From: Candidatus Uhrbacteria bacterium
GTDB taxonomy: Bacteria; Patescibacteriota; Patescibacteriia; UBA9934; GWF2-40-263
Direction of reading: 5' to 3'
Assembly (NCBI GenBank): GCA_023246355.1
Contig: JAHFIQ010000001.1
Coordinates: forward strand, 17,887 to 81,886
DNA length: 64,000 nucleotides
The notes under the pieces are model-generated. The model was not told where the DNA came from, did not search any database, and saw only the letters and a list, made by a program, of their open reading frames with translations. Numbering within the stretch: the first letter of the stretch is position 1; every line of letters begins with the position of its first letter. Made by a program: the position numbers and the translations under genes. Below, piece by piece: positions 16,168 through 36,219 of this stretch.

Positions 16168-18297
<2,130 letters not shown>

Positions 18298-18300
18298 GAA

Positions 18301-18328
18301 GGCGGGGCTTGACCCCGTCTTTGTTTTG
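18301..18328 (+). terminator. rho-independent terminator of gyrB
   Basis: GGCGGGG-CTTGA-CCCCGTC hairpin followed by TTTGTTTT. Confidence 0.6.
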
Positions 18329-18329
18329 A

Positions 18330-20160
18330 GGTAGAAAGCTTTGCCGAACGCGAGGTGTCGAGTTCGTCCTGAACGAATGATTCCCTGTTCGGCTCCTGAG
18401 TGACGAATCTGGTAGTGCTACAAAACGAATGAACAAGTGTCACTCTTCACTCGACGAGAGGTTCCATGTCGACCCAGTTCGACGAGGTCGACCTTGTCGA
18501 GTTCCAGTCTGACGTGGGTAGAAGTGCCTCATGGCGCTGCAATGTCTGTCAGACTTTATCAGGCGAACAACACGATGCCTTTACAGGCGTAGATCGCGGT
18601 GCCTGATTCTGTTGTGCGAGAAGTAGTTTGGCTTCGCGCCGTACCTCGGTATGCACGACTCCGATCGGACGAATCAACGGCTGTCTTCCAGCGACTTGCC
18701 CTCTGTCCGATCCAAGCTCGACGTAGCTTAGACTGTACAAAACGATCCAAGCGTTGTCGAGCAAACTGTGGACGTGTGCCTGGTTGTTTCCTACGAAGGC
18801 GTTCCTGTCCACTCAACTGCTGTACGATCCCGTGCCTGTCGAAAGACGAACCCACCGATGTACAGCACCGTCTGACGTCTATCGTGCTGACCGAGGTCGA
18901 CCAAGCCGATGTCAGACTCCCTATCGGACGACTACTACCTTGTCGAAAGACGGAGAAGAGTATGTCCAAATCTGTCGTGCGAATCCTTCGATGACCCTTG
19001 AGTCGAATCGGTCGTTGCACGACTCTTGCTGGACGATTGAACAGCTGCCTAATAGCGAGACATCGCGTGTCCAGCTTCCCGTGAACGATCACCGCAGTGC
19101 CTTCATGGCGAATGATCATGTGTTCAACACCGCTGCGCGAGTCAAGGTGTGTTGAAAGACGACTCCATGTCTGCGCAGCAACTCGAGTGACAAGCGATGG
19201 ACTGTTGAAAAACGATTCACCACGTGTCACTGACCCCATCGGGCGAAAGATGCAGTGGCGAGAGCCGCCGTGTGCTGTGCCTGATTGCAAGTGGACGAGA
19301 ACTACACTGCCCCTGGCTATCTGGCAGGTGTCAAGCCTCACTCGACGCAGGGCGACATGTCCAAACCCATCATTGAGATCAACTCGACTAGGATGGGCAA
19401 AGACGAAGTTCATGATGTCGAGTTTCCGTTGTGCGATCATCCGAATGACTTCGGTCGAAGCTACACTTGCACAACTCATGAGTGACGTATGAACGGCTGT
19501 TGAAAAACGCGTTGGCTAGTGTCACTCCTCCGCCCTTGGCTTCGGCCTTGGGTGTTTTATTTTGAACGACGTACTTGTGACCATATGGTCGAGAGTTCGT
19601 CACGTTCCAAATAGAGCGAAACATTGACATCTGTCCTCTTTCGGCGTAGTCATGAGGAGTCGGGCGTAGGAGATGTTGTTGAAAGACGACTGGTAGATGC
19701 CCGATTCTGCTGGACGATTTCGAGACTGCCATCTGGCGATCGTTGTGGTGTCCGGCTCCTGATGGACGAAGGTAGTCATGTCTTCGGACGATACTACACC
19801 TGTCCTTTTCCAGCTCGACGAATCATCCAGTGTTCACGGACGTGACGTACATTGTCGAGCCAACTCGTGGACGTGTGCCTGGTTGTTTCCAACGAAGGCG
19901 TTCCTGTCCGGTCTTGCCGAGCGAGGAGTAGCGTGTCGAAAGACGTAGGTCCATTTGCTCGGCCATCGAGTGAAGATTCGACTGATGTCGAAAGATGTTC
20001 CAGGGGATGTCACTCACTCCTTCGACGACCAGCCACGTGTCGCAAGACGATAGGCAAGGTGTCGAACAACTATCGGGCGAATCACGGACTGTCTCCGGAC
20101 GTCTGTAGAAGTGCCCGATTTCCAACCCTTGTCCCTTGGACGACCCAAGGGATTTTCTTT
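18330..20160. repeat. ORF-free ~1.8 kb region dense in degenerate short repeats centred on GACGA (TCGAAAGACGA / TGGACGA / TCGGACGA) and 43-60-nt diverged long repeats
   Basis: About 20 GACGA plus ~6 GACGT in 1.9 kb, against ~2 expected by chance. GUC-GAAA-GAC hairpins are frequent. 18768-18810 matches 19867-19909 at 42/43 nt, and the extended repeat is ~60 nt. The region is TA-depleted and CpG-rich, and no ORF has protein-like composition. Confidence 0.7.
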
Positions 20161-20296
20161 TTCTCTTAACCTAGCCAAAACGACGTAACCGGGTAACGAC
20201 TTTCATTGACACCAACGGAAGTTCCATGCTAGTTTGCGCCGTTGCTTTTCGAGCAACAAAACCCAAAGCCGACGGGCTCAAAACGTAGGTACCCAG

Positions 20297-21938
20297 ATGC
20301 GTTGCATCGGCATCCGACACCGTGTCAAGCAGACCAAGGACGGCGAAGCGCGTCCCACCCAGATGGTCATGTACGAGGACGACCAGTACACGAGCTACGA
20401 GCTGGAAGACGACAACGCCGAGCTCGACTTCGTGCGAGGCCGCTTCCCGGTCGCGTTCCGAGCCATCAACGAGACCGACAACCTCACGGACTTCAGCCCG
20501 CGGCACATCAAGTGGCGCACGGTGAGGAAGGACGAGGACACGAGCAAGCTCAATGCCGCGCACACGCGCAAGGTCGAAGGCAAGCTCCAGGTCGCGACCA
20601 AGGTGCCCACGAACTACGACGGCCTCAAGTCCGGCGACGTGGTGGGCATGAGCATGGGAGGCTCGGGCGACCGATTCGCCTATGCCCTCTCCAAGGTCGG
20701 CGAGAGCGTGGGTGCGACGGTCTACCGTCTTCCGCCCTTCGAGCTCAAGCGGATGCGTGTCGTGGACGCGAAGGACGAAGACGCGAAGCTCCTCGCCATC
20801 CTCGTGCGCGATCGTCGTGGACTCTTCCACGAAACGACGGCCGTCACTCGACGCATCATCAGCGTGCGTGAGTGCCAGGCCCTGCGAATCGACGCCCCTG
20901 AAGGGTCGGATCGCCTGCGAGCAGCGCCTGCAGAAGGCGATGATCGGACGCGTGTTCTGCACCGAGGGCGATTTCGCGGAGTTGGACATCGAGGCAGCGT
21001 TTGGTGAGATCAAGGCCAACGACCGCATCTACACGGCGCTCTCGGAAGAAGAAGGACAGCGCCTGCGCGCCCTGGACGCGGCCGTGAAGGAGACGGACGT
21101 GTGGCAGGAAATCCTCGACGACGTGATGGGCATCGGGCCCGCACTCGGCGGACGGATCATCTCGGCCGTGGGCGACTTCGGTCGGTTCATGGTCGAGCCC
21201 GACCAGGCGCAGATGGACGCCCTGTACAAGGAAAGCGTCCGGCTCGAACGCGAAGGCGGCTTCAAGGAGCTGCGCCAGTTCGTCCAGGAAGGTGACAACC
21301 CCTTCCAGACGCTGCAGCGCGTCGCCTCCTGGTGCCGCGCCAACGGCCGTCCCACCGAGGCAGCGAAGCTCGCCCGCGCGGTGCAGTGCCACGAGGAGCG
21401 CTCCAAACTCCGCCGCGACGCCCGCAACAAGACCCGCGGCAAGCTCAAGGCCTTCATGGGCGTGCACCTCCAGGTGAAGATCCACTGCGCCTCCTGTGGC
21501 AAGTTCCTCTCCGAGGGAGATCTCGTCGACAAGCAGACCGGGGAATCCAGTCCGCTCTGTCCCAAGTGCGGTGCCGAGTCGATCGTGTACGAGAACGTGT
21601 TCGCCAGGCGGCGTGGCGGCTCGGTGTCCAACTGGCATCCGGACGCGCGCCAGGCGCTCTACCTGCTGGGCGACCAGTTCAACCGGCAGAGCAACCGCAC
21701 GCGCTGGGGAGCCATGCTCCTCGACTACAAGGCGAAGTTCCGCGCCAAGCACCCGCAGGAAACGGATCCGGAAACCGGAAAGTCCCGTTACAGTGACGGC
21801 CACATCCACAAGATGGCCATGTGGCGGACGCTGACCAAGTTCGTGGAGTGGCTCGCCGATCAGTGGAGCGAACTGGTTCGCCGAGAGAGGCAGGCTGCCG
21901 CAGAGGCAAAGGTCAGCAAGGCCTCCATGAGCGCCTAG
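20297..21938 (+). pseudogene. TnpB/Cas12-like RuvC + zinc-ribbon protein with a +1 frameshift at the C4 tract (~20895-20898); would be ~547 aa if repaired
   Basis: GC3 bias passes from frame 2 to frame 0 at CCCC 20895-98. Motifs present: VVGMSMGGSGDRFAYALS (RuvC-I-like with S in the D position), VWQEILDDV (RuvC-II-like), IISAVGDFGRF..LYKESV (TnpB signature between RuvC-II and the zinc finger), CASCGK...CPKCG (OrfB zinc ribbon) and HPDARQALYL (degenerate RuvC-III). Confidence 0.45.
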
Positions 21939-21946
21939 CTCAACGA

Positions 21947-21975
21947 CCCCCTAGATTCACTCTAGGGGTTTTATT
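21947..21975 (+). terminator. rho-independent terminator after the GC-rich ORF
   Basis: CCCCTAG-ATTCACT-CTAGGGG hairpin followed by TTTTATT. Confidence 0.6.
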
Positions 21976-34689: not shown

Positions 34690-36219
34690 ATGAAATACGA
34701 ACCGATTATCGGACTTGAAATTCACGTGCAGCTGAAAACGAAAACAAAGATGTTTTGTGGTTGCGCTGCTCACGACCAAGGCGTTCCACCAAACACGAAC
34801 GTCTGCCCAATTTGTCTGGGACACCCTGGCGTTTTGCCTGTGCCAAACGAGGCGGCTATTCGCTATGGGGTGCTCATGGGCCTCGCTCTCAACTGCACCA
34901 TTGCCGCGCATTCAAAATTCGACCGCAAGAATTATTTTTATCCTGACCTTCCCAAGGCGTACCAAATTTCCCAGTACGACTTGCCCATTGCGATCAACGG
35001 CTCGGTTGAAATTGATGTTCCCGGTGGGGAGCGTGAGCATGTCACCATTGGCATCACCCGAGCTCACTTGGAAGAAGACGCAGCCAAATCGTTTCACACA
35101 CATGACGGCAGTACGTGCGTTGATTTTAATCGTGGAGGCACGCCGCTTGTGGAAATCGTCACCGAGCCTGATTTTCGTTCGTCCAAGGAAGCCAAAGTCT
35201 TCCTGCAGGAGCTTCGACTGATCGCCCGCTACTTGGGAGTGTCCGACGCAGACATGGAAAAAGGTCACCTACGCTGTGATGCAAACGTGTCGCTTCGACG
35301 ACTTGATGAAAAAGGCGATGTGGTCGGTGAACGTTTCAATCCAAAAACAGAAGTCAAAAACCTGAACTCGTTCCGCCATGTCGAACGGGCGATTGAGTTT
35401 GAAATTGCTCGTCAAACGCATTTGTGGGAATCAGACACGCCGCCGCTTATCTCAACCACTCGCGGATGGAACGACACACGCGGCATCACCGAGGAACAGC
35501 GCTCCAAAGAAGAAGCCGCGGATTATCGTTACTTTCCGGAGCCTGACATTCCACCTCTGGCGCTCACCGAAATTGCCGACGAGATGCGCATGAAGCTGCC
35601 TGAATTGCCCTCTGCGCGACGAGTTCGATTCGCAACAGAGTACGGACTCAAACCCTCCGACGCACGCCAAATCTGTGATGATCCAGCGCTCGCTGATTTT
35701 GTGGAAGCGGTCTTCTCTGAGCTTGACTCGTGGCTACGTGCTCTGCCAGAAATGGAAGGACTGGACGAGGAGGCTCTCATCAAAGAACGTGGCAAGCTTG
35801 CCAACCTTGTCTCTGGCTGGCTTCTGTCAAAACTCATGGGCCTCATGATGGATCGCGGGATTGATATCCGCACGAGCAAAATCTCTCCAGAAAACTTTGC
35901 CGAATTCATCACGCTCATCGCGAGCCGCAAAATCAACAACACCACTGGCCTCACGATTCTCTCCTCCATGCTCGACAATGGCGACGACCCATCACATATC
36001 ATGGAAGACAAGCAGCTTGGACGCATGGATGACGCAAGTGAACTTGCTGAAATCGTGAGTCGTGTCCTTGCGGAAAATCCGGCGGAAGTCCTGCGCTACC
36101 AAGCAGGCGAAGAACAGCTGCTCAAATTGTTCATCGGTCTTGTCATGAAATCCACAGAAGGCACAGCCGACGCTGCCCTCACAAAAAATATCTTGCTGGT
36201 GAAGCTCAAAGCTGAATAA
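34690..36219 (+). CDS. gatB: aspartyl/glutamyl-tRNA amidotransferase subunit B
   Basis: Internal Met MKYEPIIGLEIHVQL...; GatB catalytic and YqeY-like tail. Confidence 0.9.
   Translation: MKYEPIIGLEIHVQLKTKTKMFCGCAAHDQGVPPNTNVCPICLGHPGVLPVPNEAAIRYGVLMGLALNCTIAAHSKFDRKNYFYPDLPKAYQISQYDLPIAINGSVEIDVPGGEREHVTIGITRAHLEEDAAKSFHTHDGSTCVDFNRGGTPLVEIVTEPDFRSSKEAKVFLQELRLIARYLGVSDADMEKGHLRCDANVSLRRLDEKGDVVGERFNPKTEVKNLNSFRHVERAIEFEIARQTHLWESDTPPLISTTRGWNDTRGITEEQRSKEEAADYRYFPEPDIPPLALTEIADEMRMKLPELPSARRVRFATEYGLKPSDARQICDDPALADFVEAVFSELDSWLRALPEMEGLDEEALIKERGKLANLVSGWLLSKLMGLMMDRGIDIRTSKISPENFAEFITLIASRKINNTTGLTILSSMLDNGDDPSHIMEDKQLGRMDDASELAEIVSRVLAENPAEVLRYQAGEEQLLKLFIGLVMKSTEGTADAALTKNILLVKLKAE

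Follow-up and report, generated by a model that had tools for sequence, protein, structure and literature searches.

An array of paired 9-nt spacers in Candidatus Uhrbacteria, very probably a stem-loop TIGR array, beside a frameshifted tasR gene

Introduction

RNA-guided DNA-binding TIGR systems, first described in 2025, are built from arrays of tandem units with two spacers of ~9 nucleotides (nt), each spacer having a box C before it and a box D after it (Faure et al. 2025, PMC12045711). Around the spacers lie either two short repeats that alternate or variable stem-loops, and the arrays adjoin a Nop-domain Tas protein and end in a terminator (PMC12045711). In a TasR clade from the candidate phyla radiation (CPR), TasR has an expanded RuvC domain that is catalytically dead (R8 and V126 in CsTasR, a protein of 547 amino acids (aa)), the tigRNAs are of the stem-loop type with a small loop hairpin and lie up- or downstream of tas, and the protein functions as a repressor guided by RNA (Xu et al. 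2026, bioRxiv 10.64898/2026.09.09.750476). Stem-loop arrays contain a mean of ~7 tigRNAs (17,756 in 2,559 arrays) and are defined in TIGRFinder by a box C from the set CCA, CGA, CTA or CAA, a box D that is TG or CG, intervals of 14 nt, a pair gap not exceeding 15 nt and a stem of 5 bp or more (10.64898/2026.09.09.750476). Here, we analyze 64,000 nt of a Candidatus Uhrbacteria (CPR/Patescibacteria) chromosome (contig JAHFIQ010000001.1, positions 17,887 to 81,886; hereafter the window, whose own numbering is used throughout) and find that 18343-20119 is very probably a stem-loop TIGR array belonging to the adjacent tasR gene. The kind of system is already described (the CPR clade, 2025-2026) and the locus is a new example of it. 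Specific to the locus are its length, its division into two sub-arrays, the A or U base in box C, a zinc-ribbon insertion in the protein, a population-wide tasR frameshift, a fixed chromosomal position and a few guides that are conserved across species.

An array of paired spacers

A first-pass annotation, made from the letters alone, had described 18330-20230 as packed with hairpins around a GACGA motif and had counted about 20 GACGA and ~6 GACGT. The enrichment is real although the counts differ: GACGA occurs 18 times and GACGT 12 times, where 3.3 and 1.9 per 1.9 kb would be expected from the rest of the window, and for TGTC the count is 35, with 7.1 expected. Their reverse complements show no enrichment (TCGTC 2, ACGTC 2, GACA 5), hence the signal is strand-specific and lies on the + strand. 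For the hairpin-like pattern TGT[CT]-N3-16-[GA]ACG[AT], 26 of the 54 + strand matches in the window fall in this region, which makes up 3% of the sequence, as does 1 of 42 on the - strand. By sliding-window counts and by this regular expression the motif cluster is unique within the 64 kb, and the roughly sixfold enrichment of GACG[AT] and TGTC is seen nowhere else in the window. The region had also been called TA-poor and CpG-rich; the former does not hold (TA 0.026 versus 0.022 in the rest of the window) and the latter shrinks to a modest excess (0.086 versus 0.071).

The motifs are ordered by an exact spacing. When all CG[AT]-to-TG[TC] distances are tabulated, CG[AT]-N9-TG[TC] is found 47 times at a distance of 9, compared with 1-8 times at every other spacing from 0 to 20; first-order Markov simulation gives a mean of 4.4 and a maximum of 10 (300 runs), and the reverse strand has a single instance. 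The box modules form a chain from 18351 to ~19520 that resumes at 19665 and continues to 20112, with connectors alternating between ~13 and ~21 nt, and the signal drops out solely across the terminator/promoter gap between two sub-arrays. The spacing of 22-30 nt reported in the first-pass annotation is this alternation, as module starts follow each other at ~22 and ~30 nt (9+13, 9+21) and give a period of ~52 nt.

Read in this way, the region contains 31 units of ~48 nt that follow each other every ~52 nt, in two sub-arrays (22 + 9). The typical unit consists of a 6-nt 5' arm, CGA or CGU, the 9-nt spacer A, UG and an 8-nt loop, followed by CGA or CGU, the 9-nt spacer B, UG and a 6-nt 3' arm, 48 nt in total. 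Loops, often UC-GNRA-GA, are 7-10 nt long in 29 of the 31 units, 14 nt in one and 44 nt in one; the linkers between units are 3-5 nt, pyrimidine-rich and nearly free of G. The GACGA noticed earlier is therefore the last two stem bases plus box C, and TGTC is box D plus the first two stem bases. What repeats is merely the 2-3-nt box motifs together with covarying stems, and the array is regular. Of the three explanations offered in the first-pass annotation, the last, a degenerate guide-array-like locus serving a TnpB/Cas12-like gene, is right about the guide array and wrong on both degeneracy and partner, the gene being tasR. Spacing, paired intervals, loop and stem agree with the TIGRFinder stem-loop definition, and the array has a tas neighbour on the same strand and a terminator at its end; tasR begins 178 nt 3' of the last unit. 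The rows below rest on the chain of box modules and on unit parsing and alignment.

18343..19527, + strand, sub-array 1, units 1-22, period ~52 nt; box C-N9-box D chain with alternating connectors
18343..18393, + strand, unit 1, irregular; arms GCCGAA/TTCGGC, first box D degenerate
18398..18445, + strand, unit 2; spacer A ATCTGGTAG, spacer B ATGAACAAG; arms GAGTGA/TCACTC
18449..18502, + strand, unit 3; spacer A GAGGTTCCA, spacer B GGTCGACCT; 14-nt loop with a TCGA/TCGA hairpin
18507..18554, + strand, unit 4; spacer A GGGTAGAAG, spacer B TGCAATGTC; box C is CGT and CGC
18558..18607, + strand, unit 5; spacer A ACAACACGA, spacer B AGATCGCGG; folded, with terminal stem, two unpaired 9-mers and central hairpin
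18611..18659, + strand, unit 6; spacer A GAAGTAGTT, spacer B ACCTCGGTA
18664..18711, + strand, unit 7; spacer A ATCAACGGC, spacer B CTTGCCCTC
18716..18762, + strand, unit 8; spacer A AGCTTAGAC, spacer B TCCAAGCGT
18767..18813, + strand, unit 9; spacer A GTGCCTGGT, spacer B AGGCGTTCC; duplicate of unit 27
18819..18866, + strand, unit 10; spacer A TCCCGTGCC, spacer B ACCCACCGA; arms GCTGTA/TACAGC, loop UC-GAAA-GA; folded
18870..18917, + strand, unit 11; spacer A CTATCGTGC, spacer B CCAAGCCGA
18923..18970, + strand, unit 12; spacer A CTACTACCT, spacer B AGAAGAGTA; weak 3-bp terminal stem, second box C CGG
18974..19023, + strand, unit 13; spacer A ATCCTTCGA, spacer B ATCGGTCGT
19028..19075, + strand, unit 14; spacer A TTGAACAGC, spacer B GACATCGCG
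19080..19128, + strand, unit 15; spacer A TCACCGCAG, spacer B ATGATCATG; 4-bp stem
19132..19179, + strand, unit 16; spacer A GTCAAGGTG, spacer B CTCCATGTC
19185..19232, + strand, unit 17; spacer A GCGATGGAC, spacer B TTCACCACG; first box C CAA
19238..19285, + strand, unit 18; spacer A AAGATGCAG, spacer B CGTGTGCTG
19290..19336, + strand, unit 19; spacer A GAACTACAC, spacer B TCTGGCAGG; weak 2-bp stem, second box C CTA
19340..19423, + strand, unit 20; spacer A AGGGCGACA, spacer B AGTTCATGA; 44-nt loop with extended hairpin, fold -29.3 kcal/mol
19428..19475, + strand, unit 21; spacer A TCATCCGAA, spacer B AGCTACACT
19480..19527, + strand, unit 22; spacer A ATGAACGGC, spacer B GTTGGCTAG; last of sub-array 1
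19659..20119, + strand, sub-array 2, units 23-31; box C-N9-box D chain
19659..19705, + strand, unit 23; spacer A AGGAGATGT, spacer B CTGGTAGA (8 nt); 89% identical to one unit of the related locus L030
19709..19756, + strand, unit 24; spacer A TTTCGAGAC, spacer B TCGTTGTGG
19761..19808, + strand, unit 25; spacer A AGGTAGTCA, spacer B TACTACACC; 3-bp stem
19813..19860, + strand, unit 26; spacer A ATCATCCAG, spacer B GACGTACAT
19866..19912, + strand, unit 27; spacer A GTGCCTGGT, spacer B AGGCGTTCC; duplicate of unit 9
19916..19963, + strand, unit 28; spacer A GGAGTAGCG, spacer B AGGTCCATT; arms GCCGAG/CTCGGC; folded
19968..20015, + strand, unit 29; spacer A TTCGACTGA, spacer B TCCAGGGGA; both box C mutated (AGA, TGT)
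20020..20067, + strand, unit 30; spacer A CCAGCCACG, spacer B TAGGCAAGG
20072..20119, + strand, unit 31; spacer A ATCACGGAC, spacer B CTGTAGAAG; final unit; folded

The arms comprise 21 distinct 6-mers among the 31 units. Pairing between the two arms of a unit extends over a mean of 5.4 contiguous bp, versus 1.8 when the arms come from different units and 1.4 for arms that face each other across a linker, which means that the stem closes the unit and does not bridge neighbours. At stem positions 3-6, 107 of 124 cells are paired, while the maximum over 5000 permutations is 86, and the stem has at least 5 contiguous pairs in 25 of the 31 units. In a MAFFT alignment of 29 units, 96.1% of cells are paired versus 70.7% after shuffling and 24-41% when the partner is slid; both sides of the stem have changed in 68 cells compared with 17.7 in shuffles, and none of 500 shuffles reaches 68. 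The pairs between box C and box D are equally regular, with C-G at alignment columns 7-48 and G-C at columns 20-35 in 28 of the 29 units each. Single units fold as expected into a terminal stem, two unpaired 9-mers and a central hairpin. The spacers have an even base composition and are all unique except in the duplicated unit 9/27.

The longer repeats listed in the first-pass annotation are also present and find their place in the units. The ~60-nt repeat (18768-18810 versus 19867-19909, 98% identical; 18754-18767 versus 19852-19865, 93%) reflects the duplication of one unit, present as units 9 and 27. In units 2, 22 and 29, box D and the 3' arm together make up the recurring GTGTCACTC, and unit 17 has the same arm; TGCC(T/C)GATT is likewise formed by box D and the 3' arm, in units 5, 18, 23 and 31. 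Several arm families recur with unrelated spacers: GAGTGA/TCACTC in units 2, 17, 22 and 29, ATCGGG/CCCGAT in units 23 and 31 (ATCGGG/CCTGAT in unit 18) and GCTCGA/TCGAGC in units 8 and 26. A two-unit block is duplicated (units 8-9 and 26-27), with spacers kept in one unit alone. These families and the duplicated block may be a clue to how units are generated.

Gene callers see the region differently. Public gene calls (L001 12209-13367) fill the array with hypothetical proteins of 46, 284 and 78 aa, and the longest open reading frame (ORF), at 18559-19479 on the - strand, starts with ATG and spans 306 aa. These ORFs would be the footing for a decayed coding gene or a true minus-strand gene. 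The 306-aa ORF has no Pfam match, in line with the earlier remark that the overlapping ORFs here are not protein-like; the 52-nt + strand architecture with its covarying stems accounts for the whole region; and relatives, in which a conserved coding gene would have spoken for decay, keep single guide units and no reading frame. We therefore give a coding gene practically no chance, and the 46-, 284- and 78-aa calls are almost certainly spurious ORFs.

A CRISPR array has direct repeats of ~25-40 nt alternating with ~30-nt spacers, plus cas genes. The locus resembles one in its tandem variable guides beside an effector gene and, as predicted here, in a precursor that is transcribed and processed. 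CRISPR was nevertheless rejected, because the conserved elements are just 2-3-nt boxes and not long repeats, the spacers are 9 nt long with two per guide, and no cas gene was found among the neighbours scanned; TIGR guides are moreover described in the literature as reading both DNA strands and as independent of a protospacer-adjacent motif (PAM). Hammerhead or kink-turn (K-turn) motifs, ToxI-like type III antitoxin repeats, a CsrB-like sponge, iterons or oriC, and attC sites were dropped on the exact 9-nt spacing and the Tas match of the neighbouring protein.

The adjacent tasR gene

The gene that follows the array on the same strand is disrupted by a single nucleotide:

20297..21938, + strand, tasR, 546 aa once corrected; identified with NF052498, tblastn with the homolog P0002, and profile and Foldseek comparison with PDB 9MTY
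20895..20898, + strand, CCCC run with an extra C that shifts the tasR frame; from tblastn, the homolog reading ...RIDAMKGRIAC...

Pfam gave no match on either tas ORF and PHROGs only a generic 'transposase'; the decisive lead came from NCBIfam model NF052498 (TIGR_Tas_endo, 'TIGR-Tas system RNA-guided endonuclease'), which the second ORF matches at 99.7 bits, against a cutoff of 100, and the frameshift-corrected 546-aa protein at 113.8 bits, within the range of its homologs (105-124 bits). A PDB sequence search with the second ORF returned 9MTY, a TIGR-TasR structure, as the sole relative, and the N-terminal ORF alone gave nothing significant in the same search. A profile of 20 homologs matches TaTasR (9MTY) with E = 6e-13. 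For the homolog P0002, 79-82% identical to the window protein, the AlphaFold model (pLDDT 86.8) has a predicted fold of RuvC-like N-domain, coiled coil and Nop/C-terminal domain, and Foldseek with this model places 9MTY at ranks 1-2 (E = 8e-9, TM-target 0.60), followed by IS621 and ISCro4. The neighbour is thus a TasR of the CPR clade, combining a RuvC-like domain related to IS110 with a coiled coil and a Nop domain. Its N-terminus, MRCIGIRHR, has Arg at residue 7, the position of the first catalytic Asp of RuvC/IS110, and this Arg is at least 90% conserved in the 20 homologs, among which the IGIRHR motif hardly varies; the RuvC domain is probably inactive.

The kinship with IS110 recombinases raises the possibility of an IS110-type bridge-RNA array, or an IS110/IS1111 non-coding end, that programs recombination and not DNA binding. 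Weak matches to the IS110 model NF033542 and the Foldseek matches to IS621 and ISCro4 fit this, and bridge RNAs too have split guides flanked by box C/D-like motifs. However, the corrected protein scores 26 bits on NF033542 against a cutoff of 140, and structurally 9MTY matches better. DEDD recombinases depend on the first RuvC Asp, in whose place the window protein has Arg. A bridge RNA is a single two-loop molecule, whereas here 31 units stand in tandem at a site that is syntenic in five species. A recombination-programming RNA is accordingly highly unlikely.

The extra C splits tasR into ORFs at 20297-21007 (236 aa) and 20952-21938 (328 aa). With the intact 554-aa P0002 as query, tblastn aligns frame 1 at 82% identity up to ...LRIDA and frame 2 at 79% from LKGRIAC... 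onwards. The split ORFs occur in 13 contigs from at least seven samples and two assembly pipelines, so the frameshift is real in the population; the contigs that carry it have an identical array, and seven other contigs are 100% identical over the region. The frameshift falls in the first long coiled-coil helix of the P0002 model and the second ORF starts near the helix end, which makes a functional split protein doubtful. The effector has probably been inactivated recently, or at best persists as two fragments, with the array still intact: the 31 units show little decay. The split gene may reflect recent pseudogenisation, a split TasA-like product or bypass of the frameshift. Over its 1.7 kb tasR has a GC content of 0.61-0.64, compared with ~0.51 in the flanks, the array and the rest of the window. 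High GC and low Tas identity relative to NusG and GyrB may mean that the gene evolves fast or has been replaced by recombination.

Transcription signals

Promoter-like sites and intrinsic terminators frame both sub-arrays and tasR:

16258-18297, + strand, gyrB (Pfam)
18298..18327, + strand, gyrB intrinsic terminator, hairpin 18298-18322 then a U-run; fold -16.0 kcal/mol, z = -3.5
18309..18337, + strand, promoter-like site P1 for sub-array 1, TTGACC-N17-TAGAAA, with the -35 element within the gyrB terminator; pattern match
19531..19563, + strand, sub-array 1 intrinsic terminator, hairpin 19531-19554 then a U-run; fold -14.9 kcal/mol, z = -3.0
19624..19652, + strand, promoter-like site P2 for sub-array 2, TTGACA-N17-TAGTCA; pattern match
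20131..20163, + strand, sub-array 2 intrinsic terminator, hairpin 20131-20153 then a U-run; terminator scan, fold -14.6 kcal/mol
20206..20235, + strand, promoter-like site for tasR, TTGACA-N18-TAGTTT; pattern match
21948..21975, + strand, intrinsic terminator after tasR, with AACGACC just before the hairpin; fold -13.4 kcal/mol

The pattern TTGACM-N17/18-TAGWHW occurs four times in the window against 0.16 expected, and three of the sites lie just 5' of the sub-arrays and of tasR, where they would function as promoters. The array of L030 begins alike, with a terminator, TTGACA-N17-TAAACA and then the first unit. The fourth match, TTGACA-N17-TAGTCT at 24185-24213, is outside the set used to derive the pattern and lies in the rplA-dcd intergenic region, which suggests that TTGACA...TAGnnn is a native promoter form in this genome. 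ACGACC is contained in, or precedes, three terminators around tasR (21942-21975, 22025-22050 and 20139-20146); the 'ACGACCC hairpins' that had been noted beside the island are these intrinsic terminators. The ACGACC copies could be vestiges of box C and of terminal units from a former downstream array.

Two terminated blocks that look like transcription units, with ~60 repeated motifs of a protein-binding kind, would also suit the second of the earlier proposals, one or two large structured non-coding RNAs whose GACGA hairpins act as a sponge that titrates an RNA-binding protein and do not guide anything to DNA. The frameshift in tasR adds to this, as guide function may have been lost. Against a sponge, a scan of the whole window with Rfam at gathering threshold gave no match, neither to the large RNAs that had been named for comparison (OLE, GOLLD, ROOL, HEARO) nor to a curated tigRNA family. 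Pairing is local to self-contained hairpin units of ~48 nt, and long-range helices are not needed. The 9-nt segments are compositionally unconstrained and nearly all unique, which fits guides and not sponge sites, and the architecture is the one by which tigRNAs are defined in the literature and accompanies tas genes. The chance of a sponge RNA is accordingly slim.

Related loci and targets

The best named relatives of the window's GyrB are from Candidatus Uhrbacteria, and scanning GTDB genomes with the Tas alignment brought up 79 loci, almost all of them patescibacterial. The trimer spacing before TG that is most enriched on their tas strand is overwhelmingly ACG at a distance of 10 or CGA at 9, in some loci CTA at 9. 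In 47 of the 79 loci, clusters of modules directly adjoin tas on its upstream or downstream side (65 clusters on the tas strand, 1 on the opposite strand). With a strict detector of whole units, the tas strand yields 578 units and the opposite one 27; 561 of the 578 are within 2.5 kb of tas, and 60 of the 79 loci have at least three units; the motif architecture is thus kept beside homologous tas genes, the comparison with relatives that the first-pass annotation had proposed. In the window itself 23 of the detector's 25 + strand calls are inside the array, which with 23 strict units about equals the largest of the 79 loci (24 units).

Five Uhrbacteria species (loci L009, L010, L011, L018 and L030) have the order ftsW-hyp-gyrB-[array]-tas-secE-nusG-rplK in common. 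Tas is 55-68% identical among these syntenic relatives, far below the flanking GyrB and NusG (86-98% for NusG), and their arrays, of 7-12 strict units, mostly differ in content and size.

The fixed site bears on the explanation that the first-pass annotation preferred, a cluster of hairpins derived from IS200/IS605 (TnpA-Y1/RAYT) ends and resembling repetitive extragenic palindromes or bacterial interspersed mosaic elements (REP/BIME). Many short GC-rich hairpins with a recurring pentamer are what such a cluster would show, and the adjacent gene is mobile-element-like in its high GC and weak IS110-like signal. Yet there is one cluster in 64 kb and it is strictly strand-specific. Its stems differ and covary, only the 2-3-nt boxes are conserved, and the variable segments recur with a strict length of 9 nt. 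The adjacent protein is Tas, not TnpA or TnpB. The units travel with tas genes, and in five related species the locus keeps its place between gyrB and secE and is hence not dispersed. We regard a REP/BIME-like origin as extremely unlikely.

Six units match across species, versus 0.16 by chance. Unit 5 recurs in L009 (5537-5588) and L030 (5524-5577) with 94% identity and all 18 spacer nt the same, in arrays that are otherwise unrelated, and its terminal stem shows a compensatory A-U to G-C change (ATCAGG/CCTGAT versus ATCGGG/CCCGAT). The ortholog of unit 9/27 in L030 is identical at 17 of 18 spacer positions. The counterpart of unit 7 in L030 (5363-5411) has the same loop, TCTTCCAG, different arms, and spacers A and B swapped (16/18); simple descent does not explain this swap, which preserves the same duplex target. 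Swapped guides were found to function (Faure et al. 2025, PMC12045711). Shared units hint, from very few cases, at selection on targets.

From the reported 3' overhangs of 8 nt, the geometry of the target follows as 5'-[spacer B][reverse complement of spacer A]-3'. In a self-target search of the window (both geometries, at most 3 mismatches), the sole match with at most 2 mismatches is that of units 9/27 to 34779-34796 in gatB, ~88 nt into the ORF, with 16 of 18 positions identical and both mismatches central; the L030 ortholog matches at 17 of 18. Controls give 0.15 such matches per run (p ~0.1 for gatB), and the site lies within a conserved PPNT codon block, where a perfect match would need a non-conservative change. 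Given these weak statistics and the PPNT constraint, we treat the match as chance. The predicted 18-mer target of unit 5, AGATCGCGGTCGTGTTGT, has exact matches in 59 metagenome and 5 viral contigs, whose flanks are unrelated, mostly high in GC and not CPR-like, that is, background. In a comparison of 684 units with the CPR loci, the correct geometry gave 23 matches and the incorrect one 16, which is noise. Such short spacers, at 9 nt, are described as yielding many false target matches (Xu et al. 2026, bioRxiv 10.64898/2026.09.09.750476).

Comparison with known systems and proposed mechanism

The closest counterpart, going by its published description, is the CPR TasR clade around the 547-aa CsTasR of Candidatus Staskawiczbacteria. 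The host type is the same, Tas has ~546 aa, and the RuvC-like domain is expanded with Arg at the first catalytic position in both. Two 9-nt spacers, box C CGA, box D UG, variable stems of at least 5 bp and a loop hairpin are likewise common to the two, as is an array beside tas on the same strand with a terminator at its end. The window array differs in being much longer (31 units in two sub-arrays versus a mean of ~7) and in having A or U as the third base of box C. A CxxC...CxxC zinc-ribbon insertion, absent from most members, is present in the window TasR and in the homolog closest to it, and the window tasR is frameshifted.

TaTasR (PDB 9MTY, PMC12045711) is alike in the order box C, 9-nt spacer A, box D, loop, box C, spacer B, box D, in the C:G pair between box C and box D, in the fold of RuvC, coiled coil and Nop domain, and in the rho-independent terminator. 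It has conserved edge and loop repeats of 8-12 nt, 36-nt tigRNAs and box C CCA, in contrast to the variable covarying stems and ~48 nt of the window units, and it is an active nuclease (D11), the equivalent residue being Arg in the window TasR. Further away, box C/D small nucleolar RNA/small RNA-Nop ribonucleoproteins and IS110 bridge RNAs, both evolutionarily related to Tas proteins (Faure et al. 2025, PMC12045711), likewise have two short guides, box C/D-like anchors and binding by a Nop-type domain. Unlike the former, the locus has no K-turn/L7Ae module and its predicted target is DNA, not rRNA; unlike the latter, its units are tandem and its protein stays below the IS110 threshold (26 versus 140 bits).

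By analogy with the family (PMC12045711, 10.64898/2026.09.09.750476), each sub-array would be transcribed from its own promoter as a precursor that is cut within the linkers into single tigRNAs. A TasR dimer would then bind the two pseudo-symmetric box C/D pairs of one tigRNA, spacer A base-pairing with one DNA strand and spacer B with the opposite strand over a contiguous, PAM-less 18-bp site, 5'-[spacer B][reverse complement of spacer A]-3'. Because this TasR shares with CsTasR an Arg in place of the first RuvC Asp, the complex would be expected to repress transcription by binding DNA and not to cleave it.

Several points weigh against a TIGR array or against its activity. TasR is not encoded by an intact ORF, and the frameshift may have left the system without function in this strain. 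On the structural side, the evidence is that of the homolog P0002, the window's own protein being split, and the inactivity of RuvC is read from one motif and from analogy with CsTasR. Stems are weak or boxes mutated in five or six of the units (1, 12, 19, 25 and 29). The promoter consensus derives partly from the very sites that it is used to recognise. Scans of the window, of public databases and of the CPR loci returned no convincing DNA target for any spacer.

A more far-reaching reading is possible but unlikely: the locus would be vertically inherited and chromosomally fixed and not a mobile defence island, a few of its guides would be under purifying selection, and the dead TasR would be a native regulator of conserved, probably host-genomic targets. 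Purifying selection on few guides appears from the spacers of unit 5, kept in three species, and from the swap in unit 7. If this is true, the swapped unit would be a clue to how dual-spacer units are generated.

As a TIGR array, the locus adds to its family an unusually long chromosomal stem-loop array from Candidatus Uhrbacteria, with 31 units and two predicted promoters, and a natural case of a frameshifted tasR that persists with an intact array. For annotation, it is an example of a region that is opaque to gene models and filled with ORFs of 284-306 aa, almost certainly spurious, and that can be recognised by the box C-N9-box D spacing test. For the natural targets of TIGR-Tas systems and for array growth, the leads are the syntenic locus, the cross-species guides and the guide with swapped spacers.

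Genomic neighbourhood

Downstream of tasR lie secE, nusG, rplK and rplA, and a tRNA/tmRNA scan detected none in the 64-kb window. An exact 16-nt direct repeat, CACCTCATCCACCTAT, occurs twice at a spacing of 18 nt (22094-22127), at the 5' end of the longest secE ORF and upstream of the shorter secE start chosen by the gene caller. Upstream of the array, the window GyrB has 679 aa and no intein, whereas several closely related GyrB proteins from L009 and other Uhrbacteria relatives (P0123, P0125, P0127 and P0135) have ~1110 aa and an intein domain (PF14890).

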